NCBI GenBank assembly: GCA_018992685.1
Contig: JACVGT010000010.1
Coordinates: 1-64,000 of the forward strand
DNA from: Theionarchaea archaeon
GTDB taxonomy: Archaea; Methanobacteriota_B; Thermococci; Methanofastidiosales; SZ-28-30
Reading direction: 5' to 3'
DNA length: 64,000 nt
Shown here: piece after piece, positions 25,927 to 40,381 of the stretch
How positions within the stretch are numbered: position 1 is the first letter of the stretch
How the letters are laid out: every line of letters starts with the position of its first letter
The notes under the pieces: model-generated
Seen by the model: the letters and a program-made list of their open reading frames with translations, nothing else
Database searches by the model: none
Told to the model about the DNA's origin: nothing
Translations under genes and position numbers: made by a program

Positions 25927-26949
25927 ATGAAGGTATGGATTGACATATCGAATGCCCCCCATGCACACTTCTTTAAGCACGTAATACGTGAGCTGAAGGC
26001 AGAAGTCATTGTTACGACGAGGGCCTTTGACTCTGTGCCCAAGATCTTGGATTTGAATAACATAAAATATACTATTATTGGTAATCACGGGGGATCTGAT
26101 GTCAAGGAAAAGCTTGTGGCCTCTTCAAAACGAGTTTTAGAGCTCACTGAATTCATCGCTGCAGAAGACGTGGATTTAGCAGTATTCAAGCACTCAGTGG
26201 AAGCTCCCCGGGTGGCCTACGGGTTACAGATACCTTCTCTGTGTATTTTAGACAATGAAAATGCCGTGGCCCAGAACAAGTTGATGCTCCCCTTATCCAC
26301 CAGAGTTGTGGCTCCAAAGTGCATTTCTCCTGAAGAGATCACTCAATTTGGAGTCAGAAAAGAAGATCTAATCCAGTTCAATGGTATCTGCGAGCTGGCC
26401 CACGTGCGGAACTTTACTCCAAACCCAGAAGTACTCTCGTACCTGGGGTTAGACCCTGATGAGTCCATTGTGGTCATGCGCCCTGAGCCTGCCAAGGCCA
26501 ATTACTTCAACGGGGACCGGAAGAAGACTATCATCAAGACAATCCTGCAGAATAATTCGTTCAACCAAGTGGTGGTTTTCCCTCGATTTGATGAACAGAA
26601 ACATGTGCTCCAATTCCCGCATACCATCATACCGGATGAACCGGTGGATTCTCTCAGTCTGATGTACTATTCTGACCTGGTGATCAGTGCGGGAGGCTCC
26701 ATGAACAGGGAGGCTGTTTGCGTGGGGACCCCTGCTCTCTCCACCTATCCCGAGAAACTGCTGTCAGTGACGAGGTACTTGATGGACCTGGGATTGAAGA
26801 AGCACTCAATTGCCATCCCGGAGATTCTCACATACGCACATCAGCTCATAAAAGATAAGGGATACAGAGAGCGGGCCAACCGGATACTGTCCACCATGGA
26901 AGACCCTGTCGATGTTGTTCTGAGAGAGATCAGAGCCCTCGCAGGGTAA
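25927..26949 (+). CDS. DUF354-family GT-B-fold protein
   Basis: WIDISNAPHAHFF, DNE and SAGGSMNREA motifs. Confidence 0.8.
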   Translation: MKVWIDISNAPHAHFFKHVIRELKAEVIVTTRAFDSVPKILDLNNIKYTIIGNHGGSDVKEKLVASSKRVLELTEFIAAEDVDLAVFKHSVEAPRVAYGLQIPSLCILDNENAVAQNKLMLPLSTRVVAPKCISPEEITQFGVRKEDLIQFNGICELAHVRNFTPNPEVLSYLGLDPDESIVVMRPEPAKANYFNGDRKKTIIKTILQNNSFNQVVVFPRFDEQKHVLQFPHTIIPDEPVDSLSLMYYSDLVISAGGSMNREAVCVGTPALSTYPEKLLSVTRYLMDLGLKKHSIAIPEILTYAHQLIKDKGYRERANRILSTMEDPVDVVLREIRALAG

Positions 26950-27009
26950 CCTTCAATTCTTGCTGAAGTGAAGTGCAACCTTTATATTCTTCTCAAAAGA
27001 GATACTCCC

Positions 27010-27627
27010 ATGAATCTGGATGAAATGGTTCATGTCTTCCGGACAGATGAGGAAAAGGCAAAACTCCTGGCCATGCAGATTGCCAATGATCGAGGACGGG
27101 AAGTCCTGGAGTGTCTTTTCAGGGGGAGACCGAAGTCAGCATCTGAAATCGCCCGGGAGCTCAACGTTCCCCTCCCCACTGTCATGTTTCATATAGAACG
27201 ATTCTTGGAGATTGGCATCATAAAAATCGCCAAGACCCGCATGTCCAAGAAACTGCGGGAAATAAAGTACTACGGCCCTTCTAAGAGAGCAATTCTCATT
27301 ATCCCCTACCAGAAGGAAGAGACAATATCTTACATTAAAGATGCCATAAGGACTTCCGTTATTACACCCATATCACTGGGATTGGCCGTGGTGATCTCAG
27401 CAATTGCAGGATATGTACTCTATCAGATCACCCAGACAGTACCACAGTCCCTTCTTGCTGCGCGAGAGGAAGCTCCTGCACTGCCTCTTGAGAAGGCGGC
27501 GGAGGGAGCAGGGCCGCAACTGAGTGAATTTCTCTCTTTGTCCAGCCCGCTGGTCCTTGTGCTCGTGGGGTGTCTCATCACCATGGGTGTTCTGGCTGGT
27601 TATTCGTTCATAAAGAACAGAAGATAA
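27010..27627 (+). CDS. ArsR-like wHTH regulator with C-terminal TM helices
   Basis: SASEIARELNVPLPTVMFHIERF HTH followed by two hydrophobic segments. Confidence 0.75.
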   Translation: MNLDEMVHVFRTDEEKAKLLAMQIANDRGREVLECLFRGRPKSASEIARELNVPLPTVMFHIERFLEIGIIKIAKTRMSKKLREIKYYGPSKRAILIIPYQKEETISYIKDAIRTSVITPISLGLAVVISAIAGYVLYQITQTVPQSLLAAREEAPALPLEKAAEGAGPQLSEFLSLSSPLVLVLVGCLITMGVLAGYSFIKNRR

Positions 27628-27631
27628 GTGA

Positions 27632-28855
27632 TTATGGATTGTTCTTATTCCTAAAGAAGAAGTAGAACAGTGCCGTGCCCACCACATAGATGAACCCTGT
27701 GATCTGGAATGCCTGGGTAAAGCCCCCTGCAGACAGTAGATACCCTCCAATGTCTGACCCAAATGCTCTGGAAAAGGTGGATCCAAATTGGGACAGACTA
27801 TTTGCCTTTCCACGTTCGTGCTCTGAGATTTCATCCATGAAAAAGTTCTGCTGGGCAGGGCTGGCCGTGTTCATCAAGGTGGTTCTGAAAAAGTATCCAA
27901 TGAATGATGGAAACAGTGTATCAGACACGGTGATCAGTAGCAGGAAGGGAATGGACAAGATCTGCGTCAACACAATGGAACCCACTTTCCCGTATCTTCT
28001 CACAACAAAAGGAAGCACCAGAGAGGCAATCCCCATGGACAATTCTCCCAGTGAAAACATGAATCCAATCTGAGCAGGTGTTGCCTGGAGTACCTCAGAG
28101 AAGTAAACATTGAAGAAGGGGACAATGACTCCTGCGCCAAACCCAATCAATGATGAGCAGAACACGAACTGACCCACAAACCTCTTCTTGTCCCCGAACA
28201 GATGAAGGCTGGAGGAGGAAGGGGTGGCAACTCTCTTCTTTTCTGTGATGAAAAACAGAGGGAAAAAGGCCAGCAACGTGAAAACGCCTGCAGTTAACAA
28301 CGTATACTGATACTGCACAGTCACTGTTACTCTTGCCACAGAAAACGCAGCAGGCAACAATCCGCCTATGAGACTTCCTATCATCCGGGAGAAACTCCTG
28401 AGAGCAGCATCCACACTGAAGAGGTGCATTCTCTCATATGGGTTGCTCTGCTCCATCATGAAGGGTGCAATAACCACCATGATCAAGGAATTCGACAAGC
28501 CACGGACACTGTTCCCTACGAGAAGCAGGAGTTTGTCTTGGGCAACACTTACTGCAAGAGTAGATCCAATCATCAACCCCGTAGAGAGGAGGAGCGTGTT
28601 CTTCCTGCCAATCTTATCTGAGATGGCTCCTCCAGGGAACAGGAACACGGCTGAAAAGATGAGGTTGGAGGAAATCACAATCCCCAGAAATGCGGCAGAA
28701 TAACCCAGCTCCAGGATATACAGGTTGAAAATCACATTGAAAATGCCCAACCCAACAGTCACCAGGCAGTGACTGAGTAGGAATATTTTGCTGTTTCTGG
28801 AGATGGACCTGATTCTGTCCAAGTAGTCAGTGATTTCATCCTTGATGGCGGCCAT
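27632..28855 (-). CDS. MFS transporter
   Basis: About 12 TM segments; GAISDKIGRK motif A. Confidence 0.88.
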   Translation of the reverse strand: MAAIKDEITDYLDRIRSISRNSKIFLLSHCLVTVGLGIFNVIFNLYILELGYSAAFLGIVISSNLIFSAVFLFPGGAISDKIGRKNTLLLSTGLMIGSTLAVSVAQDKLLLLVGNSVRGLSNSLIMVVIAPFMMEQSNPYERMHLFSVDAALRSFSRMIGSLIGGLLPAAFSVARVTVTVQYQYTLLTAGVFTLLAFFPLFFITEKKRVATPSSSSLHLFGDKKRFVGQFVFCSSLIGFGAGVIVPFFNVYFSEVLQATPAQIGFMFSLGELSMGIASLVLPFVVRRYGKVGSIVLTQILSIPFLLLITVSDTLFPSFIGYFFRTTLMNTASPAQQNFFMDEISEHERGKANSLSQFGSTFSRAFGSDIGGYLLSAGGFTQAFQITGFIYVVGTALFYFFFRNKNNP

Positions 28856-28926
28856 TGGGTGGTAGAATTTGGGCCACTATAAAAAGATATGGGTTGAAAG
28901 GCTCTGGCACTGTCTGCCAACAGCAT

Positions 28927-30159
28927 TCACAGTGCCTTCAGGTATGTGGGAGCAGCCCCGGTAATGGTAACCCTGGAAAATGACCCCATGCGACCTGTGC
29001 ACACCACCGGTTTGTAATTGAAAAGTCTGGCTATCATGGTGGAAGGAACAGTCCCTTTTTGATTGACAAGGACTTCATAAGATTTTCCCACGTATTTCCT
29101 GTTAATGGAATGAGAAATGTCCATTCGCAACTTATATAAGAGGCGGGAACGTTCTTTCTTTATCCAGTCAGGGATTTGAGGCATCCTGGAGGCCTGTGTT
29201 CCCGGACGTGGCGAGAATCGAGTAACATTTATCTTATCTGGATTAATCTTCTTTACCAGAACGAGGGTGTCGTGAAACTGTTCTTCTGTTTCGGTGGGGA
29301 ATCCTGCAATGACATCTGTACATAGGTACAGATCCGGGAATTCTTTCCTGAAAGCCATACAGACAGTCACGAATTCATCTACTGTGTATTTTCTGTTCAT
29401 GAGTTGGAGGATGTGGTCGTTCCCCGATTGAACGGGAATGTGCAGGAATGTATAGATCTTTTCATGGTGGTAGACAGAAAGAAGATCCTCCAGGATGTCA
29501 AGAGCATGATTGGGATTCATCATTCCCACCCTGATTCTGAATTTTCCTTCCAGAGAGACCAGGTTCTCCAAGAGGAGCGGGAGTCTTTCCCCTGTGTTGA
29601 GGTCTGCGCCATAGCACCCCGTGTCCTGGGAAGTGATCTGCAGTTCCTTATATTCCTGAGAAATGAACTGGGCTGCCGTCTTGACGATTGATTCTGCGGG
29701 GTAGCTGTACAAGTGACCCCGGGCGAACCGGGCAGCGCAATAACTGCAGGATCCCACGCAGCCCTCAGAAATGGGAATGAGAGCATTAATCCCATCACCT
29801 GTACGAGGATAGCACAGCTTATTCTGTTTCTCTTCTCGTATAATGCGAACAGTGTGCCCTTCTTTGACCCTCTGGACAGCTTCAACAATGTCGTAAACAT
29901 TTGTTCCCACAACGTTTACATCCAGATTGGATATCTTGGGAAGACATCCTGCCACAATCAGGCATTTGTTCCTGGCTTTGATCTCCTCAATTCGCTTCCT
30001 GATCTTGTGTTCAGTGGGTCCTTTAACCCCACAGGAATTTATAATCACAACGTCAGCTTCGTCCAGACTCTCTGTGATCTGAGGGTAGAGTAGGGCTTTG
30101 ATAATTTCCGAATCTGCTTTGTTCATGGTGCAGCCATAGGTTTCCAGGTAGATCGACAT
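28927..30159 (-). CDS. tRNA methylthiotransferase (MiaB family, archaeal MtaB type)
   Basis: ETYGCTMN..DSE, NSC, GC in the MTTase N-domain; CVGSCSYC radical SAM motif; TRAM-like C-terminus. Confidence 0.88.
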   Translation of the reverse strand: MSIYLETYGCTMNKADSEIIKALLYPQITESLDEADVVIINSCGVKGPTEHKIRKRIEEIKARNKCLIVAGCLPKISNLDVNVVGTNVYDIVEAVQRVKEGHTVRIIREEKQNKLCYPRTGDGINALIPISEGCVGSCSYCAARFARGHLYSYPAESIVKTAAQFISQEYKELQITSQDTGCYGADLNTGERLPLLLENLVSLEGKFRIRVGMMNPNHALDILEDLLSVYHHEKIYTFLHIPVQSGNDHILQLMNRKYTVDEFVTVCMAFRKEFPDLYLCTDVIAGFPTETEEQFHDTLVLVKKINPDKINVTRFSPRPGTQASRMPQIPDWIKKERSRLLYKLRMDISHSINRKYVGKSYEVLVNQKGTVPSTMIARLFNYKPVVCTGRMGSFSRVTITGAAPTYLKAL

Positions 30160-30442
30160 TTGCTGATTACAGGTGTCGAAGATATATAATATTTGTTGAC
30201 AGGTGCTGCCCCTGGTTCATGAAGTGTGGAACAGGATGGTCGCCTCAAGCCTCCAGTATCTGAACACACGAGTATGAGGTATTCAGAACTGCGGCTGATC
30301 GAGTACATATTTGCGGGCAAGAGATTCTGCCAAAAGGCTTGAAGATTTATTCAAATATTGAACGCAGGACTGTACGCTACGCCCAACTCCTCTATCCAGT
30401 GTTCACTGAGAGCTTGCAGGACAGCTGCGAAAATCTATATTA

Positions 30443-31765
30443 GTGATGATGAGAATGTGCAGCATGCCAGAACTGCCAGAGGAGCCCAGACTGCCCAGCC
30501 GACGTGAGCTTGAACAGGCGATCTGGTCTGTGATGATAGCAATTTGTGTTGTACCTGTGGTGTACTCTTTTTCTCTTTTAGTCCGAGAGAGATTTTCTCT
30601 CATTCAAGCAGCAGAGCCCATGGCGGCCTTTCCCTATCACTGGTGGTTGGTGTTCATCTGCCTGGGGGGAGGTGCAGTTGTGGGACTTATCATCTGGAAG
30701 ATCGCCCCGGAATCAGAAGGTCCAGGACTGCAGGTGGTTATTGCAGCTTTCAATAAACGGGACGGTCATTTGAGAACCAGAACGGGCGCCTCAAAGTATG
30801 TAGCCACGCTCATAACAGTAGGATCTGGCACTCCCAACGGTATTGTCAGCCCTTCTGCTGTTCTGGGGAATTCAGTGGCCAGCATGATAGGAAGAATAGG
30901 AAATACGGAAAAAGACAGAGACCTGCAGAAGACTCTTTCCCTCTGTGGAGTTTCTGCCGCCCTTTCAACGCTACTGGGAGCACCAGTGGGTGCTGCACTA
31001 TTTGCGGTTGAAGTGGTGTATGGCAATTACATATTGTATAGGAGGTTCTTCTACTGTTTGATTTCCAGCGTTACAGCGCATGCGGTGACCCATTTTCTCG
31101 GTATGGAAACAGCGTACTTTGACATCACTCTTCCGGAGTTATCGCTCACGGGGTACGGACTTTTCCTTGTGATACTCACGGCGCTGTTCTCAGTAATGAT
31201 AAATATTGGATATATTTCTGTATATCAGAGAATCCATGACTTTTTTTCAGATCTATCCCACAGAATGATTCCATGGCTTGTTCCTGCAGTAGGTATGGGA
31301 CTGGCTGCCCTTATAATGGTTCCCCTCTATCAGAAGTTGATTGACTTCAGTCTTCTGGGCGGGAGTGCTTTCAGAATTACTGCAGCTGCAGCTGCCCCCT
31401 GGTATGTGATAGCTGTACTGATTGTGGTCATCGTGATAGCTACTTCTCTGGTGGCAGGCTCAGGGGGGAGTGGCGGGCTCTTCATGCCCGTTATGACAGT
31501 AGGAGTGCTGACAGGGATTCTGGTTGGAAATGCATATCCTCCTTTCATCTTTTTCTTTATCGTGGCTGGGATGAGCGCCGCCCTGTGCACCACACTCAAT
31601 GTTCCGCTGGCATCAGCTGTCCTGGGCATTGAATTGTTTGGTCCTCCTGCTATTCTTCCTTCAATCATAGGCGCCCTGACAGGATATATTTTTGCCAAAC
31701 GTTATGTCATATATCATGAAATCCAGTGGGAGGCATTGAAGGAATCAGATCAAGAGAAAGACTAG
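30443..31765 (+). CDS. CLC-family chloride channel/transporter, divergent
   Basis: APESEGPG, GAPVGAALFAVEV, GGSGGLFMP and NVPLAS motifs; no CBS domains. Confidence 0.8.
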   Translation: MMMRMCSMPELPEEPRLPSRRELEQAIWSVMIAICVVPVVYSFSLLVRERFSLIQAAEPMAAFPYHWWLVFICLGGGAVVGLIIWKIAPESEGPGLQVVIAAFNKRDGHLRTRTGASKYVATLITVGSGTPNGIVSPSAVLGNSVASMIGRIGNTEKDRDLQKTLSLCGVSAALSTLLGAPVGAALFAVEVVYGNYILYRRFFYCLISSVTAHAVTHFLGMETAYFDITLPELSLTGYGLFLVILTALFSVMINIGYISVYQRIHDFFSDLSHRMIPWLVPAVGMGLAALIMVPLYQKLIDFSLLGGSAFRITAAAAAPWYVIAVLIVVIVIATSLVAGSGGSGGLFMPVMTVGVLTGILVGNAYPPFIFFFIVAGMSAALCTTLNVPLASAVLGIELFGPPAILPSIIGALTGYIFAKRYVIYHEIQWEALKESDQEKD

Positions 31766-31900
31766 CCCACAATGATCTCCTCCTTGGAGATCATATGCGG
31801 GAAGCCAAGTCCTGGTTTGTGTACTGATTTCTCCCTGCAGATGATCTTCCAGTCTGTTGTTCGTAGGAGATTCAGTCACTTCATGTCCTCCCAATCCAAG

Positions 31901-33115
31901 TTATTCATCTCCATGGGAAGAAGCATCAGACCTCCTTAGCATGAAAAGAGCAGGTATTCCAAGCAGAATTACCACTGATGCTACATACCAGGATCCGATA
32001 ATGGAGGCTCGCTCTGCAATCACACCAAAAATGATTAACCCCAGAGCTGCAGCTCCTCTGCAGATCATGGAATCAAATGATAGAATCGTCGCCCTGGTCT
32101 CTGCTGGGATATGGTCGTTTATATACGCTTTCCGGGTGGGAAGCATGGTACCCCTCCCCACAAAGTACAGGAAGAAGAGAGGCAGCGACAACACAAAGTA
32201 GTTTGATAATCCCAGGACCAGAGGTGTGGCAGCACACAGAACAGTTGACAGGATCAGCACGTGATATCGCTTGAAGAGTGACGTCCAGTGCACCAGGAGA
32301 CTGCCCACCATCAGTCCCAGCGACAGGGCAACCCATGCGAGACCTACCTGTTGGGTGTTGGCGATCTCCTGGAAGTAGGGCTGCCAATACTGCATCACAG
32401 CCATGTATGCAAACATTGAGATGGCGCCAGGTATGATCAGGAATAACACCACCTTATTCTTTACCCCATAGGTAATGCTGAATCCAATGATTTTTTTCAT
32501 CTGTGATGCTCCATTCCTCAAAGAGAGGTTCTCCCTTCCTAGGTGCACCTCCTCCATCAGTAGATATCCTATCCAGAGAGTTGCCAGAGCCAACACCGCT
32601 CCCGCCAGAAAGGGATATGCTAAATTGCGTGAACCCAGGAATGCTCCAGAGAGTCCTGCAACAATCGACATGCCGCTTGCCAGGGTAGCCGCTCTCCCGA
32701 AGAGCCTGTCTTTCTTTTGTGTGTATCCGTTGGCATCCAGAGAGTCCACGAACCAGGCTTCCAGCGCACCCGAATGGAATGTCATGCCTATGGCAGCCAC
32801 TATTTCTGCAAGGGCAAAAAAGAGAAGAGACCCTGAGAAGAAGTAGATGAAAAAAGAAAAAGACATGAATAAGCAGGCAATCAGGAAGGAACGCTTGCGT
32901 CCAAACATGTCTGATACTGCACCTGTGGGAATCTCCAGAAGGAACACACTCCCCATGTAGAAGATATTTACCAGGTTGACCTGCAACAGATTCAGCCCCT
33001 TGGAAAGCATGAAGAGAATGTTTGTCGCCTGAATGGTGTTTACAGACAACATAAATAAGCATTCCAACAGGTAGAATGTGAGTACCGTCTTTTTCAGTCT
33101 ATGTATGAAGCCCAC
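31901..33115 (-). CDS. MFS transporter (putative RiPP exporter)
   Basis: LEIPTGAVSDMFGRK, SGALEAW and RATILS motifs; start overlaps the upstream radical SAM gene by 17 bp. Confidence 0.88.
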   Translation of the reverse strand: MGFIHRLKKTVLTFYLLECLFMLSVNTIQATNILFMLSKGLNLLQVNLVNIFYMGSVFLLEIPTGAVSDMFGRKRSFLIACLFMSFSFFIYFFSGSLLFFALAEIVAAIGMTFHSGALEAWFVDSLDANGYTQKKDRLFGRAATLASGMSIVAGLSGAFLGSRNLAYPFLAGAVLALATLWIGYLLMEEVHLGRENLSLRNGASQMKKIIGFSITYGVKNKVVLFLIIPGAISMFAYMAVMQYWQPYFQEIANTQQVGLAWVALSLGLMVGSLLVHWTSLFKRYHVLILSTVLCAATPLVLGLSNYFVLSLPLFFLYFVGRGTMLPTRKAYINDHIPAETRATILSFDSMICRGAAALGLIIFGVIAERASIIGSWYVASVVILLGIPALFMLRRSDASSHGDE

Positions 33116-34475
33116 CTTTGGTTCGTTCTTTCAAGAAGGGATAGTAGTATCGGGCGGACTCGAAGAGAACATCTTGTACATCAGTGCAGAATGGGCTGCC
33201 GATACTCCCTTCCTTTTCTGCAGCAAGCTTTGTACACCCTCCACCGCATACGAGCGCCAGGTTGCAGGACGTACATTTTTGCATGCATAGAATACTCCTG
33301 TTCCTCCATGATCCCAAGACGCTCTCATCTATTTCGAGTGTTGGAAAGAATCGTCCCACTTTGTATTCTTCAACACCAGCACTATCAACGCAGGTATAGA
33401 CATCCCCATTCAAATCAAAACAATAGCGAGTCATGTTCCCTCCACAGAATTTGAACTGGGGAGATGGAAGATGCCCAGTTTCCAAGACCTTTCTGAAGAT
33501 TTCAGCTCCGACCCAACCAACAAGGTGAATGACACTCATATCTTCACAATTTCGGTAGAAGTCAAAGATTTGATGTAGTGAGACATGTTCTGGCAGTCTG
33601 TGTTCATATTCCATGCAGCTGATGTCTCTCATGGGGGCAAGGTAGGGGACAATCAGGTTATTTCCTTTCCAGCCCTGTTCAACAAAGAAATGGGCCAGCT
33701 CAGGAAGAAGAGGTAAATTCTGAGCATCCACGTTGATGTGAATTGCTATCTTTATGTTGTTATCCACTGCCTTCTGAACTCCTCGTATGATGGGAGCAAA
33801 CGTCCCTCCAGACGTGGCAGAGATGCGCCTCTTGTTGTGTATCTCTTCAGGCCCATCCACTGTGACCTGGATATACTCCAGCTTATAGGAAGACAACATA
33901 TCGGTGTAGAATTCCAGATCCACGCCATTCGAGACAATTTTGGGTTTCCACCCGCGATTGTTGCTTTCTTCAAGGGTTTTCTGGATAACCTCAGATTGCC
34001 TCTTCCTCTTCAAGAGTGGTTCTCCCCCGAAAATCACAAAGTAGGGGAGTTCCTTTGATGGTGATCTTTCCTGAAGATAGTCCATGCTTTCAAAGGCAGC
34101 CTGAAGACATTCATCATCAATGACAGCACTTTTCAAGGCTGAATGATCCTGAAAGCAGTAGCTGCAACGGAGGTTGCATGCGTAGGTGGGGTACAGATAG
34201 AAAACGGGCAGACTCGTTCTGATCTTCTCCTCATACTCTCTGAACCGATAGTTCAGAAACCTGTCCTCGTGTTCCTCGATTTCGTACACGTATCCCTTTC
34301 TCTTCAAAGTGAGCAGTATGTTGGCATCACTTATCTCTTCACCACGTTCCAGACTCTTGAGGATTTCCACCATTTCATCATCAATGATATCCATGGCAGA
34401 AGACAGATTATTCATCAAAATGTACATTCCTTCTTCATCTACTGGCAGCAGCAAATTGTAACGACTAAGATGTAT
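33099..34475 (-). CDS. Radical SAM/SPASM peptide maturase 2 (probable ATA start at 34475; first canonical start is TTG at 34454)
   Basis: CNLRCSYC, FGGEP, and SPASM C-x17-C...CxxC-x5-C-x3-C...C; the N-terminus aligns in register with maturase 1. Confidence 0.9.
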   Translation of the reverse strand: MHLSRYNLLLPVDEEGMYILMNNLSSAMDIIDDEMVEILKSLERGEEISDANILLTLKRKGYVYEIEEHEDRFLNYRFREYEEKIRTSLPVFYLYPTYACNLRCSYCFQDHSALKSAVIDDECLQAAFESMDYLQERSPSKELPYFVIFGGEPLLKRKRQSEVIQKTLEESNNRGWKPKIVSNGVDLEFYTDMLSSYKLEYIQVTVDGPEEIHNKRRISATSGGTFAPIIRGVQKAVDNNIKIAIHINVDAQNLPLLPELAHFFVEQGWKGNNLIVPYLAPMRDISCMEYEHRLPEHVSLHQIFDFYRNCEDMSVIHLVGWVGAEIFRKVLETGHLPSPQFKFCGGNMTRYCFDLNGDVYTCVDSAGVEEYKVGRFFPTLEIDESVLGSWRNRSILCMQKCTSCNLALVCGGGCTKLAAEKEGSIGSPFCTDVQDVLFESARYYYPFLKERTKGGLHT

Positions 34476-34481
34476 ACTATG

Positions 34482-35852
34482 CTAACCTCCCTCTGCTCTT
34501 TTCTTTATGTAGGGGTAGTAGTAGTGAAACCCGAGATTCAATATCTGGTGTATTCCCACACAGGGGCTGGCCTGCAATGAACCATGTTTTGTCACCGCGA
34601 TGAACGTACAGCCTCCCCCGCACAGGAGATTGTAGGAGCAGGTGCTGCACTTTGGAAGTGTCAAGATGTTTCTCGTTTCCCATTGGTTGAGCAAGTCAAC
34701 ATAGAACTCCGATTCCGGAAAGAACTTTCCGATAACCTGACTCTTCTCCCCCGCGAATCCAGCGCATGCGTAGATGTCCCCGAATGTGTCGAAGCATAAC
34801 CGCTTCATTCCTGCCCCACAGAAGTTGAAAAGGGGAGAATACAGCCGGCCCTTTTTCACCAGGTTTTCTATGCTTTCCATCCATCTCCATCCCATCAGTG
34901 TGATGATTTTTGTCTCCGGACGCTCTGCATACATGTTCAGTACTGTCTTGAGCAACTGCGGAAGCGGAACAACATGTTCCTGTCCAATGCAACCAGAATC
35001 CCTCACAGCCGCAATGTACGGCGTGATCAACCCGGTGTCCTTCCAGCCTCTTTCTATGATAAAGGAGGCCATCTCAGGCAGTGTTGAGAGATTCTCTTTG
35101 TCCACATTGATGCGCAGTGCAATGTTCATTCCTATTTCCTTTAGAACCCTGTCTATGTTATCTGCAATTCGGTCAAAGCTTCCCGATCCATCCGCGAAAA
35201 TCCTCCTCCTGTTGTGTGTGTCTCTCGGTCCATCCAGGGTGACCTGAATATGTTTATCCACATATTTCCGGACTATGTCTATGTAATGACCAAGATCAAC
35301 CCCATTCGTAATTATTTTTGAGTGAAATCCCATATCCTGGCATTTCTTGAGGATGTATGTAACTGCTTCTTTCTGCTCTTTGCGATACATCAGTGGTTCT
35401 CCACCGAATAGGGTGAGCAAGGGCTGTTCTTTGGCTCCTCCTTCTGAATGGAATTTTTCCATGACCTCAAATGCCTTGTCAACAAGACGGGGTTTGATAA
35501 CATCTCCAATTCTCATGTCCTCTGTCTGAAAACAGTAGGTGCAGCGGAGATTGCATCCATATGTTGGATAGATAAAAAAAGACTCGGGCTCTGAAGCAAG
35601 GTTCTTGTTCCACTGCTCGAAAGCTTCTGTGATCAACTTTTCTTCATCTTCTTTTTTTAGATAAATGTATCTTCTCCTTGCCAGTTCATAGAGTATTTCT
35701 CTGTTATTCACCAACTCCCCCTGACTTAAGGTCTTGATGACGTCAATAACCTCTTTATCAACTATATCAACAGCTCCTGAAAGAGGATTCACCAAGATGA
35801 TGTCCTCTGTATCAGAAATTGGAAAAAAGAAAGTATAACGACTAACGTACAT
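34482..35852 (-). CDS. Radical SAM/SPASM peptide maturase 1
   Basis: CNLRCTYC, FGGEP, and SPASM FC...YAC...CSTCSYNLLCGGGC...PC; N-terminal extension of about 85 aa; ATG 35852 follows GGTGA. Confidence 0.92.
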   Translation of the reverse strand: MYVSRYTFFFPISDTEDIILVNPLSGAVDIVDKEVIDVIKTLSQGELVNNREILYELARRRYIYLKKEDEEKLITEAFEQWNKNLASEPESFFIYPTYGCNLRCTYCFQTEDMRIGDVIKPRLVDKAFEVMEKFHSEGGAKEQPLLTLFGGEPLMYRKEQKEAVTYILKKCQDMGFHSKIITNGVDLGHYIDIVRKYVDKHIQVTLDGPRDTHNRRRIFADGSGSFDRIADNIDRVLKEIGMNIALRINVDKENLSTLPEMASFIIERGWKDTGLITPYIAAVRDSGCIGQEHVVPLPQLLKTVLNMYAERPETKIITLMGWRWMESIENLVKKGRLYSPLFNFCGAGMKRLCFDTFGDIYACAGFAGEKSQVIGKFFPESEFYVDLLNQWETRNILTLPKCSTCSYNLLCGGGCTFIAVTKHGSLQASPCVGIHQILNLGFHYYYPYIKKRAEGG

Positions 35853-35881
35853 GGCGATCACCAGATCAAGTAGTGTGCGCG

Positions 35882-36109
35882 TTATGGCACAGCAACTTCA
35901 AGAGCACAGAATGTTGGCTGGACTTCAAGAGCACAGAATGTTGGCTGGACTTCAAGAGCACAGAATGTTGGCTGGACTTCAAGAGCACAGAATGTTGGCT
36001 GGACTTCAAGAGCACAGAATGTTGGCTGGACTTCAAGAGCACAATACAGTGTTCCGCTTTCGTCCTTCAGGTTAAGGTTCTCGTCACTAACCACAGATTT
36101 CATGAACAT
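35882..36109 (-). CDS. Putative RiPP precursor peptide: leader, five CALEVQPTF repeats, then CALEVAVP
   Basis: Strong SD GGAGGTGA at 36114-36121; 75-aa ORF ending 30 bp upstream of, and co-oriented with, two SPASM enzymes. Confidence 0.85.
   Translation of the reverse strand: MFMKSVVSDENLNLKDESGTLYCALEVQPTFCALEVQPTFCALEVQPTFCALEVQPTFCALEVQPTFCALEVAVP
35895..36043. repeat. Perfect 27-bp tandem repeat, 5 full copies plus 14 bp
   Basis: acttcaagagcacagaatgttggctgg at 35895, 35922, 35949, 35976 and 36003, partial at 36030; no spacers. Confidence 0.98.
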
Positions 36110-36251
36110 GTGTTCACCTCCTAAAGGTTTTACTTTCCATCCCGCACGAGTATTTAGATCTAATGGTTATTAGACTCTTTTTCTTTGCGAGATATTCTCA
36201 TTCGTAGGCTACTCAGATGATGTTTGAGAAAAAGCCTGAAAAAATCCTGAA

Positions 36252-37691
36252 TCAGGGTAGTCCTAAACGTTTCCTTATGATCACAGCAAACATACGAAGT
36301 CCTGTTTTCACATTCTGTGTTCTCCCTGCAGAATGTTTTGACTCCCCTCCACATCTCTTTCCGTACGTGACTGCTACCTCAACCACTGTCATGTCCGCCT
36401 TCAGCGCTTCAATCATCATTTCCACTGAGAAAGCTGCTCCTTCGTCTCGAAGGGTGTCCCGTATTCTGGCGTAGGTCCATTTCCACAGTCCCCGGTATGT
36501 GCACCCCACATCGGTGAATGAAGCACCTTTCTTCCACCACAATGTTTCCACCAGTTTTGCCAGAGCCCTATTCCCCCATCTCAGGAACCAATCCATGTTG
36601 GCCCCCGGTTCCACCAACTCCCTGAAGGTCCGGGTCCCAACAACCATGTCAGCATCTTTCAGGTGATCCACAATCATGAGGAGGTCCTTTGATCTGAAAG
36701 AGGCGTCCGCTTCTGTTATCACCAGGATGTCTCCCTTTGCGGCCTCCATGCCGCATTTCAGTGCATTCCCGTATCCCTGCTGTGGTTCCAACACTACCCG
36801 GGCTCCCTTCTTCTCTGCGATTGCTGCTGTCTCATCAATAGAATTGTTGTTTATCACAATAATTTCGTTCACAGGTTGGCTGGAGAAATCATCTATCACG
36901 TTTCCAATGCATTCTTCTTCATTGTATGCAGGTATAACAACAGAAGTATCAAAAGAATCGAAGTGGGACTGTCGCCACTGATACGTGGCCCGATTCAAGT
37001 CTCTTACTGTATTGATATTGGTGTAGAATCCTCTTAGAAAGAAAGCATAGACCTTTGACTCTTGCCTGGCAAGAATGTCAATAATATCAGTAATCTCAAT
37101 CTCATTCCGCAAGGAGGAAGGAGAAGCCTTTCTGATGTAATCGAATACCACTGGAGAAAATGCGTAGGTTCCCACACCCAGAAGATCGGTCCTCGGTGAC
37201 ACTGGCTTTTCTGTCAGAGACAGGATTCTATCACCTTCAAGGCACACGGCATAATTCTGGCTGATAGCTTTCATATCCATTGTCTTTTGAACGGCACAAA
37301 TAGCATTGAAATCACGGGAGAACAAAGAAAGCATCTCATTGTGGTTGGTGTTGATGTACATTTCATCCCCTAGAATAACGAAGAAAGGTGAATCAATATA
37401 CTCTTCACCAAGTCCAATGGCGTGGCCTATCCCTCTGGGATATTCCTGGGTAATGTAGTTGATTTCCAATCCCAGTGAGGACCCGTCTTCAAAATAAGAC
37501 CTTACCTGGTCTCCATGCTTTCCAGTCACAATGTGTATTGTTTTACAGTCTAGGTTGGTCTTGAGCAATTCCAGGTTATACTGGAGAAGGGGTTTCCCGT
37601 GAATGGTAAGCATTGCTTTTGGCTTCCTTTCTGTCATGGGGTACATTCGTAGTCCCCGCCCGGCAGCAGGAATGAGTGCTACGTTGCTCAT
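36252..37691 (-). CDS. Fusion of a sugar-phosphate nucleotidyltransferase (RmlA-like) and a GT2 (Dol-P-sugar synthase-like) glycosyltransferase
   Basis: IPAAGRGLRM.P...PK, ILGD and RNEIEITD, followed by VVIPAYNEE, GYGNAL, EAD and FTDVGC. Confidence 0.82.
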   Translation of the reverse strand: MSNVALIPAAGRGLRMYPMTERKPKAMLTIHGKPLLQYNLELLKTNLDCKTIHIVTGKHGDQVRSYFEDGSSLGLEINYITQEYPRGIGHAIGLGEEYIDSPFFVILGDEMYINTNHNEMLSLFSRDFNAICAVQKTMDMKAISQNYAVCLEGDRILSLTEKPVSPRTDLLGVGTYAFSPVVFDYIRKASPSSLRNEIEITDIIDILARQESKVYAFFLRGFYTNINTVRDLNRATYQWRQSHFDSFDTSVVIPAYNEEECIGNVIDDFSSQPVNEIIVINNNSIDETAAIAEKKGARVVLEPQQGYGNALKCGMEAAKGDILVITEADASFRSKDLLMIVDHLKDADMVVGTRTFRELVEPGANMDWFLRWGNRALAKLVETLWWKKGASFTDVGCTYRGLWKWTYARIRDTLRDEGAAFSVEMMIEALKADMTVVEVAVTYGKRCGGESKHSAGRTQNVKTGLRMFAVIIRKRLGLP

Positions 37692-37831
37692 GGGTCATGC
37701 CTCTCTTTCTGTACTTGTACCAGTATTTTTATATAAAGGTTAAGCTGTCTCCATTTTGGACTGGAGGTATCACCCATGATTGGAGGATGTGCCGTTTTCA
37801 ACCTTTATAAGCAGGCACGCCAAGAATACGT

Positions 37832-40381
37832 ATGAAGCTGAAGCACCCCACAGTGATCGCTTTTCTTATCCTGGCCCTGCTCACAGGGCTGGAAACACCC
37901 TTGAGACCTGTCTTCTCCCTGGGGTTATTCAGCTTCTTCCCTGGGCTACTCATCATATCTCTGGTTAAAAAAGAGGTTGATGTACCGGAACTTGCAGGAC
38001 TCCCACTCTTGGTGGGAATTTCCTTCTGGATTGTCTTTTATTATTTAACGTCAGGGCTTCACATCTTCACCTGGTACATTCTGGGAGGCATATCCTTTGT
38101 ATGTGCCGTTCTTGCAGAGAGGCAACCCCTGGTGGTGTCACGTGAGCACTACTGGGGGGTGTTCATCCTAGTTCTCTGCTGTCTCTTTGTTGGTTCGTAC
38201 CTGTACCCCTGGAACCAGTTTTTCCAATGGATGCCTCCCGGAGATGACATGAAGTTTCATATCCCTTTCATTGAGCATCTGGTTTCTCAACATGCGTTGC
38301 CTCAGGACTACGGTCTTTTGTACCCAGAGCTATCCACACTCACCTACTCTCTGGGATACCATATCACTGCAGGGCTGGCAGTCATCGTCGATTATTCGGT
38401 ACGTTCTCTCATGATTGCCACCTTTTTTATTGCTTCTCTTGCCTGTTTTTCCTTCTACTATTTGGGAAAGGCTTTATTTGACTGGAAGACCGGGATTTAT
38501 GCTGCTTTTTCCTTTGCCTTCTTATCCTTATTTTTCCAGCGGTTGTCTTCCACGGGGACCTATCCTAATCTACTTGCTGTCGCACTGCACGTTGTAGGAC
38601 TTTCATTGCTTTGTGAGTTGATGCTCCAGAAACCCAGTATCTCCTGCCGGTTCAGGAGAGGAGATAGTATATTCGGAATCTTCTGTGTAACGTTGGTATG
38701 TGCAGGTGCCGCAGAAACTCACCCTTATATTTTCATCATGGAGGGCATGGTCCTGGGAGGGGCATTGCTCTACTGGGTGTGGCAGAAGAATTTCGGAGCA
38801 GCTCGCCTCATTATCGCTGTTGGTGCTGGAATTCTTTTCCTGTGCATCCCCTTCTTCTTGAGGTTCAACCTAGAGCCACTCTCTGAGCTGGAATTCCTAA
38901 CGTTTGCTGCCTGGTACAGAATTGACTCTTTTGTGTCAGTACAGAACGTGATAAAATTCATCGGCATTATCAGTCCGCTCCTGCTTTTTTTGGGGGTGTC
39001 AGGGTGTATGGTGACTGAGAGAAAATGGATTCTGAGTGTATGGGGTGGGAGCATGATGGTTTTTCCCCTGTTATCGGTTTTCCAGGTACGGTACCCAGGC
39101 TGGTACACCATTTCTCCCAACAGGTTCTTTTTCTTCTTGTTCATGCCGCTCTCCATCATGTCAGGGAGACTTCTTTCCTACATGGAAGAACACATTGGTT
39201 CCAGGAAGGTTATAGGGTTCCTGGTCATTCTGATCCTTGTGTCAGCAGGGATGCACCACGCAAACCTCTTCCATTCGTTCTCGCAGGACCCACTCACGCA
39301 GGTTCAGATGAATGGTGACGACCAATTTGTCATAGATTGGATTTCCACGTATACACCCCAGAATACGGTCATTCTAAACACGGGCCCGGTGGCAGACTGT
39401 TCCTCATGGGTTCCTGTGTTGGCCGAAAGGAGGGTGGTCTTTCCCTTCTTTTCAGGATACAGGGGCGACAACTGCATAGAAAGACTGAAGGCTTACAACA
39501 GCCTGGCTGATCTAATGGTTCTCACGCATACACCTGATTCTGATCTGGCGCTCATGGCTTTGAAGAAGTACGGCATCCAATACATATACGTTCCTGCCTG
39601 GAGGGAAGTAAGATGGCTTGATCTCCACCCGGAGCTCTTACTGGATTCTCCATTGTATCAGTCAGTGGTCAAGAAAGGAGATGCATACGTGTTTGAAGTG
39701 AATTTCAATAGTCGTCACAAAACAGTGTACTATACAGTCACAGAAATAGAACAGATTCATTCGTCTGAGAACATGATCTCTCTCTTTTTCAACCCTATAA
39801 CTTCTTTCGGAGTCCATGGAGGACTGTACTTGCAGGTAGACTATGCAGATACAACGCACCAGCAGATTGACATCTACGTGAATGATACGTATGTGGAAAC
39901 TGTGTACACGTACCTGACAGATGAGGAAAGATCATTATTACTCCCTCTTTCTCACCTGGAAGAAGCAACCATTCTTTTCAAAGGAGACAGTGACTTCGTC
40001 CTGAAAAAAGTGTCCCTCCTGGTAGGAGTAGAGAACTGTCTGCAATTGTCTGAGAACGTAGGGACCCAGGGTGCATGGGTGAGAACAGACCTCGGTGTCA
40101 TTGCTCCATCATCTGAGAGGGGACTGCAACTTCTGGTGGTTAACGTGTCAGGAGGAGTAGTTGTGATGGAATACAAAGATGAAGGCATGGGGGATATTGA
40201 AATTTATGAAATTGATGCCTGGGGGAACCGTCGTCTTCTTCAGACCATCTCTAGAGAGAATACAGGAAAGAATGTGACAGTGCAGCTTCCTCTCCAGGAC
40301 GAATACACGGTTCTCGTTTTGACTGTAGAGGTCTGCGGTGATGACTTTCTCATACGTGAGATCGGGTATACTCCATCATGA
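37832..40381 (+). CDS. Large polytopic membrane protein, probable GT-C glycosyltransferase
   Basis: More than 12 TM segments, PPGDDMKFH loop motif, and a soluble C-terminal region (WI...TP...WVPVL...KYGIQYIYV). Confidence 0.6.
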   Translation: MKLKHPTVIAFLILALLTGLETPLRPVFSLGLFSFFPGLLIISLVKKEVDVPELAGLPLLVGISFWIVFYYLTSGLHIFTWYILGGISFVCAVLAERQPLVVSREHYWGVFILVLCCLFVGSYLYPWNQFFQWMPPGDDMKFHIPFIEHLVSQHALPQDYGLLYPELSTLTYSLGYHITAGLAVIVDYSVRSLMIATFFIASLACFSFYYLGKALFDWKTGIYAAFSFAFLSLFFQRLSSTGTYPNLLAVALHVVGLSLLCELMLQKPSISCRFRRGDSIFGIFCVTLVCAGAAETHPYIFIMEGMVLGGALLYWVWQKNFGAARLIIAVGAGILFLCIPFFLRFNLEPLSELEFLTFAAWYRIDSFVSVQNVIKFIGIISPLLLFLGVSGCMVTERKWILSVWGGSMMVFPLLSVFQVRYPGWYTISPNRFFFFLFMPLSIMSGRLLSYMEEHIGSRKVIGFLVILILVSAGMHHANLFHSFSQDPLTQVQMNGDDQFVIDWISTYTPQNTVILNTGPVADCSSWVPVLAERRVVFPFFSGYRGDNCIERLKAYNSLADLMVLTHTPDSDLALMALKKYGIQYIYVPAWREVRWLDLHPELLLDSPLYQSVVKKGDAYVFEVNFNSRHKTVYYTVTEIEQIHSSENMISLFFNPITSFGVHGGLYLQVDYADTTHQQIDIYVNDTYVETVYTYLTDEERSLLLPLSHLEEATILFKGDSDFVLKKVSLLVGVENCLQLSENVGTQGAWVRTDLGVIAPSSERGLQLLVVNVSGGVVVMEYKDEGMGDIEIYEIDAWGNRRLLQTISRENTGKNVTVQLPLQDEYTVLVLTVEVCGDDFLIREIGYTPS

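Follow-up and report, generated by a model that had tools for sequence, protein, structure and literature searches.

A precursor peptide gene, two radical SAM/SPASM maturase genes and an MFS transporter gene very likely form a RiPP cluster in the window, by which we mean the whole 64 000-nucleotide stretch analysed here, which comes from a contig (JACVGT010000010.1) of an uncultured sediment archaeon (Theionarchaea). The precursor repeats the unit (F/Y)CALEV six times. On comparison of the sequences with those of a second precursor family built on FCATLP, the motif common to both families can reasonably be read as aromatic-Cys-Ala, with the Glu of CALEV appearing specific to its own family. 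The modification of FCALEV is probably a Cys thioether of some kind, as suggested by the predicted architecture of the enzymes, their cluster-ligand pattern and the invariance of the Cys.

The precursor gene and its repeat array

The precursor gene (35882..36109, minus strand) encodes 75 aa, composed of a 21-aa acidic leader, a repeat core and a terminal AVP. A Shine-Dalgarno-like sequence, AGGAGGTGA (36114..36122, minus strand), ends 4 nt before its ATG and is kept in the ortholog of G001, a genome of the same genus in which the DNA further upstream of AGGAGGTGA diverges. Promoter and terminator scans with bacterial models, which do not cover archaeal promoters, gave matches at chance level. 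In translation, the predicted leader (codons 1–21; 36047..36109, minus strand), whose start resembles by eye that of the short FCATLP precursors (M-x-M-K-small-hydrophobic), is followed by the repeat part in codons 22–75: YCALEV as unit 1 (36029..36046, minus strand), FCALEV as units 2–6 (35894..36019, minus strand) with a 9-residue period and QPT between units, and then AVP and the stop. Tyr is found in the first unit of all four family members. The six units, the Tyr before the first and Phe before the others, and the AVP end had been described in an earlier note on this DNA, and all were confirmed in the 75-codon ORF. When the 3.03-Mb genome was translated in six frames, CALEV occurred six times, every time in this ORF.

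At the DNA level the core is a perfect 27-nt tandem array of 5.5 copies (35895..36043, 100% matches). The earlier note placed the first CALEV outside the phase of this repeat, but the array begins at the first Cys codon, so that CALEV 1 is inside and in phase and only the Tyr and the TL before it lie outside at that unit. From the 149-nt array, a depth of 4.4× was predicted for repeat 31-mers, and 4.3–4.7× was observed in X1, possibly the source sample, and 3.4–5.8× in X8, values to which other strains could add depth; the copy number is consistent with these ratios. QPT, which had been proposed to be a linker, neither precedes unit 1 nor follows the last unit, and all seven listed changes in Q, P and T codons were synonymous. 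Because it is conserved at the protein level yet absent at both ends, we regard QPT as a conserved spacer and not as a free linker; it may serve as a spacer or as a site for a protease encoded elsewhere.

Selection on the precursor reading frame

Repeated pentapeptides occurring at least three times were found in 34 of the 19 222 ORFs of 40–150 aa in the genome, four of which were frames of the FCALEV array, and repetition alone is therefore weak evidence for a gene. These ORFs, together with the perfection of the DNA repeat, would suit a reading of the precursor ORF as a by-product of the tandem repeat that is a substrate of nothing. That reading is largely refuted and we consider it extremely improbable in view of the substitutions found in related contigs from four sequencing runs (40 of 44 rows listed). 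Against an expectation of 24% per change, 16 of the 16 listed substitutions in core codons 22–48 were synonymous, whereas the same changes read in four other frames gave 0, 3, 12 and 0 of 16. They fell in codons for Y, C, A and L (one each), E, P and T (two each) and V and Q (three each); their placement within the repeat is ambiguous and their reading frame is not. Since the core changes are all synonymous, the reading frame of the precursor is fixed by selection. Among the 24 substitutions listed for the leader, 18 were synonymous and 6 non-synonymous.

Also contrary to the by-product reading, the Shine-Dalgarno-like sequence, the leader and the position of the gene are kept in G001, where the ortholog has four units that differ from those of the window only synonymously. 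The G001 precursor ends in QPTF at a TGA that replaces the fifth Cys codon (L002:2895-2924), and the tail beyond this TGA has seven changes in 27 nt, all in codons with a changed residue. The former last unit is thus decaying behind the TGA, having gained non-synonymous changes only after the stop had released it. We considered and rejected selenocysteine read-through of this TGA: no selD was found above the cut-off in G000 or G001 and the later codons had changed non-synonymously. Two database orthologs contain four and three units and end in MVP, and the four related FCALEV peptides, 92–97% identical, hold 17 units in total. The gene is hence a short leader-core precursor that lies beside a maturase gene and is under selection.

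Gene neighbourhood

The cluster runs in the order precursor, A, B and MFS on one strand, tightly packed, and the order is shared with G001. The maturase A gene (34482..35861, minus strand), with a start at GTG 35861 or ATG 35852, encodes an RRE-like N-terminus, a CxxxCxxC motif and seven SPASM Cys. Its paralog B (33099..34475, minus strand) is 39% identical to A, and the MFS transporter gene (31901..33115, minus strand), syntenic in G001, overlaps the end of B by 17 nt and likely encodes the exporter. The proposal that the repeat precursor serves radical SAM/SPASM enzymes was thus supported, and so was the reported absence of a protease gene from the cluster, as none of the 11 ORFs scanned in the interval 25927–40381 matched a protease family. 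NCBI labels as Theionarchaea a protein that is 87% identical to A, and the sequencing runs containing DNA of the cluster are mostly sediment metagenomes.

Two neighbouring genes were noted in addition. A ClC-type channel gene lies at 30443-31765, between a MiaB-like gene and the MFS gene, and is absent at the equivalent site of G001. The gene at 37832-40381 encodes a hydrophobic protein of 849 aa that matched nothing in Pfam or NCBIfam; it is divergent from a nucleotidyltransferase-glycosyltransferase fusion gene and is also present in G001.

Architecture of maturases A and B

Both enzymes score above the PF04055 cut-off and have 3 + 7 invariant Cys, corresponding to CxxxCxxC and SPASM. The predicted model of A (pLDDT 93) begins with three strands (residues 8–11, 18–22 and 27–31) and three helices (33–43, 51–59 and 67–87), which is the composition of an RRE and aligns over the N-terminus of CteB. 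The seven SPASM Cys were invariant in 35 of 35 aligned rows, and an extra hairpin Cys was not. In CteB, PapB and CrpC, this seven-Cys spacing leaves auxiliary cluster I open to the thiol of the substrate (available parts of PMC10177961 and PMC13692751), and the three-Cys pattern of an open auxiliary cluster I is present in A and B as a sequence pattern.

CteB was the best solved match to A (profile E 2e-37; Foldseek E 8e-22), and TigE was also a fold match (TMq 0.65). Among NCBIfam families the top matches were CefB, PapB and TIGR04463 at 128–159 bits, all below cut-off. Specifically, A scored 131 of 340 against PapB, 109 of 425 against SCIFF and 91 of 453 against QhpD, with lower scores for B. 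The two enzymes scored 128 and 127 bits against TIGR04463, the CrpC family, for a cut-off of 525, and 104 and 95 bits against DynA, the dynobactin maturase family. The triceptide families gave 59–61 of 445 (YhhB) and 48 of 310 (GrrM/OscB).

We then compared the six catalytic-proximity positions of the pocket defined in the available part of PMC10288494. They read F-F-I-T-A-G in A, F-F-V-T-V-D in B, F-F-T-S-H-Q in CteB and F-F-V-S-K-G in TigE, so that A differs from CteB at four of the six, and ChlB has Y-H-Q-S at positions 1–4. Neither the His-Gln pair of CteB nor the His/Gln of ChlB is found in A or B. The pocket of A would therefore match neither the ranthisynthase nor the cyclophane example, and TigE appears closest among the solved enzymes compared, which were CteB, ChlB and TigE and whose ranking complete published profiles could alter. 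The GYW motif of TigE, which supplies a Tyr ligand to auxiliary cluster I in cyclopropyl synthases (available part of PMC10878394), was absent from both A and B, where the aligned region is GW and lacks the Tyr.

A is likely the catalyst. In B, 40 of 42 family-invariant residues are retained, including CxxxCxxC, and one family-invariant Arg is His. B has an ATA at 34473-34475, 10 nt after GGAGG, where the G001 ortholog, equally spaced from its GGAGG, has ATG along with the conserved Arg; the ATA represents a non-canonical start, or else the start codon was lost recently, and initiation at the TTG downstream would shorten B by seven N-terminal residues. General decay of B was ruled out by its dN/dS of 0.097 relative to G001 (A, 0.069; neighbouring genes, 0.04–0.12). 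B is under purifying selection with its CxxxCxxC kept, and a second chemistry by B is possible.

A second precursor family

A second locus of G001 (L032:956-4832, G001:C132) was reached through enzyme homology and not through a peptide search. Its products are a peptide of 79 residues in which FCATLP occurs three times, an intact maturase, a SPASM-like protein lacking CxxxCxxC and a B12 radical SAM protein. From this locus we assembled a set of 27 FCATLP peptides with 73 units, one of which is labelled Methanosarcina and one Methanofastidiosia, after exclusion of P0137 as an extended duplicate. The FCATLP precursor was found in 1 of 133 genomes of the phylum to which the window belongs. Short two-unit peptides seem to share records with the long ones and with the enzyme P0024, which suggests two precursors per FCATLP cluster. 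P0167, clustered with a short precursor, was dropped because it reads by eye as an FtsH-like protease.

The earlier note took aromatic-Cys-x-x-Glu to be the conserved core of the unit and called for an alignment of homologous precursors. In that alignment the aromatic and the Cys held throughout and the Glu did not: Phe/Tyr-Cys-Ala was kept in 17 of 17 FCALEV and 73 of 73 FCATLP units, and the residue at Cys+3 was Glu in all 17 units of the close FCALEV orthologs and Leu in all 73 FCATLP units. Of the 77 Cys of the FCATLP peptides, 73 lie within FCATLP, and Glu never stands at +3; this invariance is partly built in, because an FCATLP profile was used to retrieve most of the members. By comparison, among the 137 Cys of 29 candidate precursors encoded next to more distant paralogs, none was part of an aromatic-Cys-Ala combination; these candidates had been picked by hand for containing Cys.

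The maturases of the two families are also related. The FCATLP maturase grouped with A and B in one 12-row clade with support of 98/98 (29 rows, LG+G4) and with SH-aLRT 94 under a mixture model (24 rows), these smaller trees being subsets chosen by hand from 187 rows. The four groups of this clade were also together at 0.93 in the 187-row FastTree, and the support was just 5 in a fast 48-row tree. The FCATLP maturase, at 36% identity, is no nearer to A than are several enzymes without a known precursor (37–39%), and from its own side the nearest non-orthologs are relatives of A and B. Its score against FxsB was 50 of 370. The pseudo-radical SAM protein encoded by the second gene of the locus, predicted to be catalytically dead as it lacks CxxxCxxC, best matched P0037, P0010 and its own neighbouring maturase.

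Thioether model and alternative chemistries

Our leading reading, which we hold tentatively and by analogy with CrpC, is that each unit receives one thioether from Cys to the residue at +3, chosen by position. The leader would bind the RRE-like N-terminal domain of the enzymes, as their CteB-like architecture suggests, the core Cys would coordinate the open iron site of auxiliary cluster I, and hydrogen abstraction by the 5′-deoxyadenosyl radical would occur at the side chain of residue +3, with the acceptor set by position as Glu in FCALEV and Leu in FCATLP. Aromatic-Cys-Ala would be the docking motif read in each unit, and each of the six precursor Cys would end up in a small ring closed by a thioether. 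Export by the MFS protein would concern either a single polycyclic chain or separate units released by a protease whose gene lies elsewhere. The sequences show the ORF and the selection on it, the order of the genes, the architecture of the enzymes and the conservation of the motif; all of the bonds, enzyme roles and export steps of this model are what we infer.

In the available part of PMC13692751, CrpC is described as modifying CAVD, ACAGM, PCAGD and CPLVL, and for two of these the site was confined to CAGM and CPLV; Ala follows Cys in three of the four motifs, the acceptors are not all acidic and the pocket profile of CrpC is reported as ranthisynthase-like. C-A-L-E and C-A-T-L both suit such logic, provided that the acceptor is chosen by position. 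The ranthipeptide-like Cys-to-Glu(i+3) bond of the earlier note may accordingly hold in its spacing, for which CrpC is the precedent, and fails in treating Glu as the conserved element. QhpD makes longer links. PapB is not a precedent for the spacing, since its native CX3D/E is i+4 (available part of PMC9413430), a position at which the FCALEV peptide has Val. The +3 model by itself gives no explanation for the invariant aromatic, and the four pocket differences from CteB argue against it, A seeming at least as TigE-like in these residues.

The invariant aromatic would be accounted for if the Cys were joined to the adjacent upstream Phe or Tyr, through the alpha carbon to give a six-membered thiomorpholinone or through the benzylic beta carbon to give a seven-membered ring; we consider this link, or one to another nearby position (+2, +4), unlikely. 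To our knowledge, adjacent residues are not joined by any characterised enzyme near the A/B clade. In favour of the link, the aromatic alone, besides Cys and Ala, is common to all 17 FCALEV and all 73 FCATLP units, the thioether-type features of the enzymes apply equally to such a bond, the pocket is hydrophobic, and the enteropeptins have a six-membered Cys thiomorpholine (available part of PMC12395415), a ring size from which adjacency of the joined residues follows. However, the acceptors of CrpC, which is the closest archaeal precedent, lie on the downstream side of Cys (available part of PMC13692751). A cyclophane spanning three residues, in which the Phe/Tyr ring would be bonded to the beta carbon of Ala and the Cys would be free or used by B, is distinctly less probable. 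The F-C-A triplet has the triceptide spacing and fits aromatic-X2-X3 in 17 of 17 FCALEV units, Ala is known as X3 from the HAA motif of HaaB (available part of PMC11499958), the two enzymes differ in their pocket residues and they score 104 and 95 bits against DynA. Yet the triceptide families YhhB, GrrM/OscB and FxsB score far under their cut-offs, and the F-F-I-T of A stands against the Y-H-Q-S of ChlB; the aromatic-to-Ala(i+2) cyclophane offered in the earlier note is thus disfavoured, as the pocket residues of ChlB, the one solved synthase of such rings that was aligned, are missing from both enzymes. A cyclophane would also leave the invariant Cys at X2 unexplained in FCATLP, where a single intact SPASM enzyme is encoded on a contig that ends in the next gene.

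Action on an aliphatic residue without involvement of sulfur, either TigE/TvgB-like cyclopropanation of Leu or Val or an epimerisation, is very unlikely in our estimation. The known precursors in which a short motif, TVGG or TIGSVS, is repeated are substrates for cyclopropylglycine formation, and the tig cluster combines a pair of radical SAM genes with a transporter gene (available parts of PMC10878394 and PMC9062424); TigE is moreover a fold match of A at TMq 0.65 with a resembling pocket profile. Opposed to this are the missing GYW of A and B and the lack of any Val or Ile position common to FCALEV and FCATLP. We further considered, as a doubtful possibility, that FCALEV and FCATLP represent an undescribed, mainly archaeal RiPP class in which a CteB-like radical SAM clade, with a fused RRE and a distinct pocket, would read the aromatic-Cys-Ala triplet repeatedly along the precursor. 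Its bond would involve the aromatic residue, being either a Cys-to-adjacent-Phe thioether or a Phe-Ala cyclophane with a sulfur bridge made by the second enzyme, and its unit count (3 to 6) would change through slippage of the DNA repeat.

Returning to the +3 thioether model, we lean slightly towards B as a partner of A rather than as the source of a second chemistry. The suggestion of one chemistry per enzyme found no direct support: the second copy of the FCATLP locus is dead by prediction, and TrnC and TrnD are two intact enzymes with one chemistry, in whose complex only the radical chemistry of TrnC is needed (available part of PMC12093266).

Comparison with known systems

CrpC and CrpA of Methanococcus voltae resemble the FCALEV system in combining an archaeal RRE, a radical SAM domain and a seven-Cys SPASM domain with a repeated Cys motif, in their C-A-x-x motifs and in thioethers to downstream acceptors that are not always acidic. 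They differ in the size of CrpA (29 kDa), in its 17-residue repeats, in the absence of an aromatic before Cys from the quoted motifs and in the use of one enzyme (available part of PMC13692751). CteB/SCIFF (PDB 5WGG/5WHY; TIGR03974) and PapB (NF047865) have the same domain order and open auxiliary cluster I pattern as A, from which they differ by identities of about 21–22%, sub-cut-off scores and, in the pocket, by the F-F-T-S-H-Q that A does not share. In TigB/TigE and TvgA/TvgB, one short motif is likewise arranged in tandem (available parts of PMC10878394 and PMC9062424) and the TigE pocket is similar, but A and B are devoid of GYW, and Cys and an aromatic are the basis of the FCALEV motif. 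The aromatic-X-Ala spacing of the triceptides (ChlB, HaaB, YhhB, GrrM/OscB, FxsB) is shared by each FCALEV unit, while A and B fall below those family cut-offs, their pocket is unlike that of ChlB and an invariant Cys stands in the middle of the FCALEV triplet. TrnC and TrnD form long-range hairpin sactionines. As in the thuricin CD cluster that encodes them, the cluster in the window contains a pair of radical SAM/SPASM paralogs side by side (available part of PMC12093266). The FCATLP cassette (L032) has in common with the window an F-C-A core, tandem units, a maturase of the same clade and a second SPASM-like gene directly downstream, and differs in the Leu at +3, a variable spacing of 13–21 residues, the loss of CxxxCxxC from the second gene and the B12 radical SAM gene that follows.

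Repeat-motif precursors with radical SAM enzymes (available parts of PMC9062424 and PMC10878394) and archaeal thioether maturases, in the form of CrpC, are already known, whereas the motif, the enzyme clade and the FCALEV–FCATLP link appear undescribed. FCATLP, FCALEV and CALEVQP had no match in the literature text searched, and a search by topic found no description of the FCALEV system, in coverage from which subscription papers were mostly missing for the former and missing for the latter. FCATL, CALEV, FCAL and FCAT had 0 matches in the 3422-row precursor supplement of PMC10288494. Earlier maturases of short repeat motifs gave new chemistry, namely the cyclopropylglycine of TvgB and TigE, and the A/B clade matches none of the curated families, while its pocket differs from those of the solved thioether and cyclophane enzymes compared. 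Nature provides two substrate series with the same F-C-A and different residues at +2 to +4, through which recognition could be told apart from bond formation. Were the product a plain Cys-to-+3 thioether, it would extend the CrpC result and be of moderate interest.

Search scope and related loci

The search for more FCALEV-type precursors returned two further peptides only (2 matches at E≤10 among 921 candidates). A profile search of 1.84 billion representatives gave 10 matches, comprising 1 FCALEV peptide, 3 FCATLP peptides and 6 longer proteins that were judged unrelated (4 inspected). No divergent FCALEV precursor was found in these searches beside the 45–70% identical enzymes P0010, P0011 and P0013, whose records lack genomic context. 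Among the matches listed, pattern scans of metagenomes and genomes yielded distant enzymes only (≤34% identity). The enzyme profile at E≤1e-95 had no match in 401 genomes of the class of G133 or 301 of the phylum of G134, with few candidates scored per genome. None of the conclusions draws on the unpublished genome G135.

This genus of sediment archaea appears unusually rich in RiPP clusters, with radical SAM/SPASM clusters on contigs C1, C10, C13, C18 and C33 of G000 and at loci L033-L046 of G001. In G000, 36 TIGR04463-like matches were detected, 0 of them over the cut-off. Many of the radical SAM/SPASM genes of the genus are arranged in tandem as pairs or triplets, and several have short Cys-rich ORFs of varied motif next to them. 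A clade near A and B (a subset of P0025-P0043) has Cys-Cys at pocket positions 5–6, which could give a fourth cluster ligand, and two of its paralogs have near-adjacent locus tags in one Theionarchaea record. Contig C26 of G000 contains short ORFs that repeat KSDYVRIE with unique spacers and look like translated CRISPR arrays. In another family of the same class, related maturases were found beside short Cys-containing ORFs (L213 in G090; L229, L233 and L223), and at one of these loci the leader contains KPLTP like that of the long FCATLP precursors.
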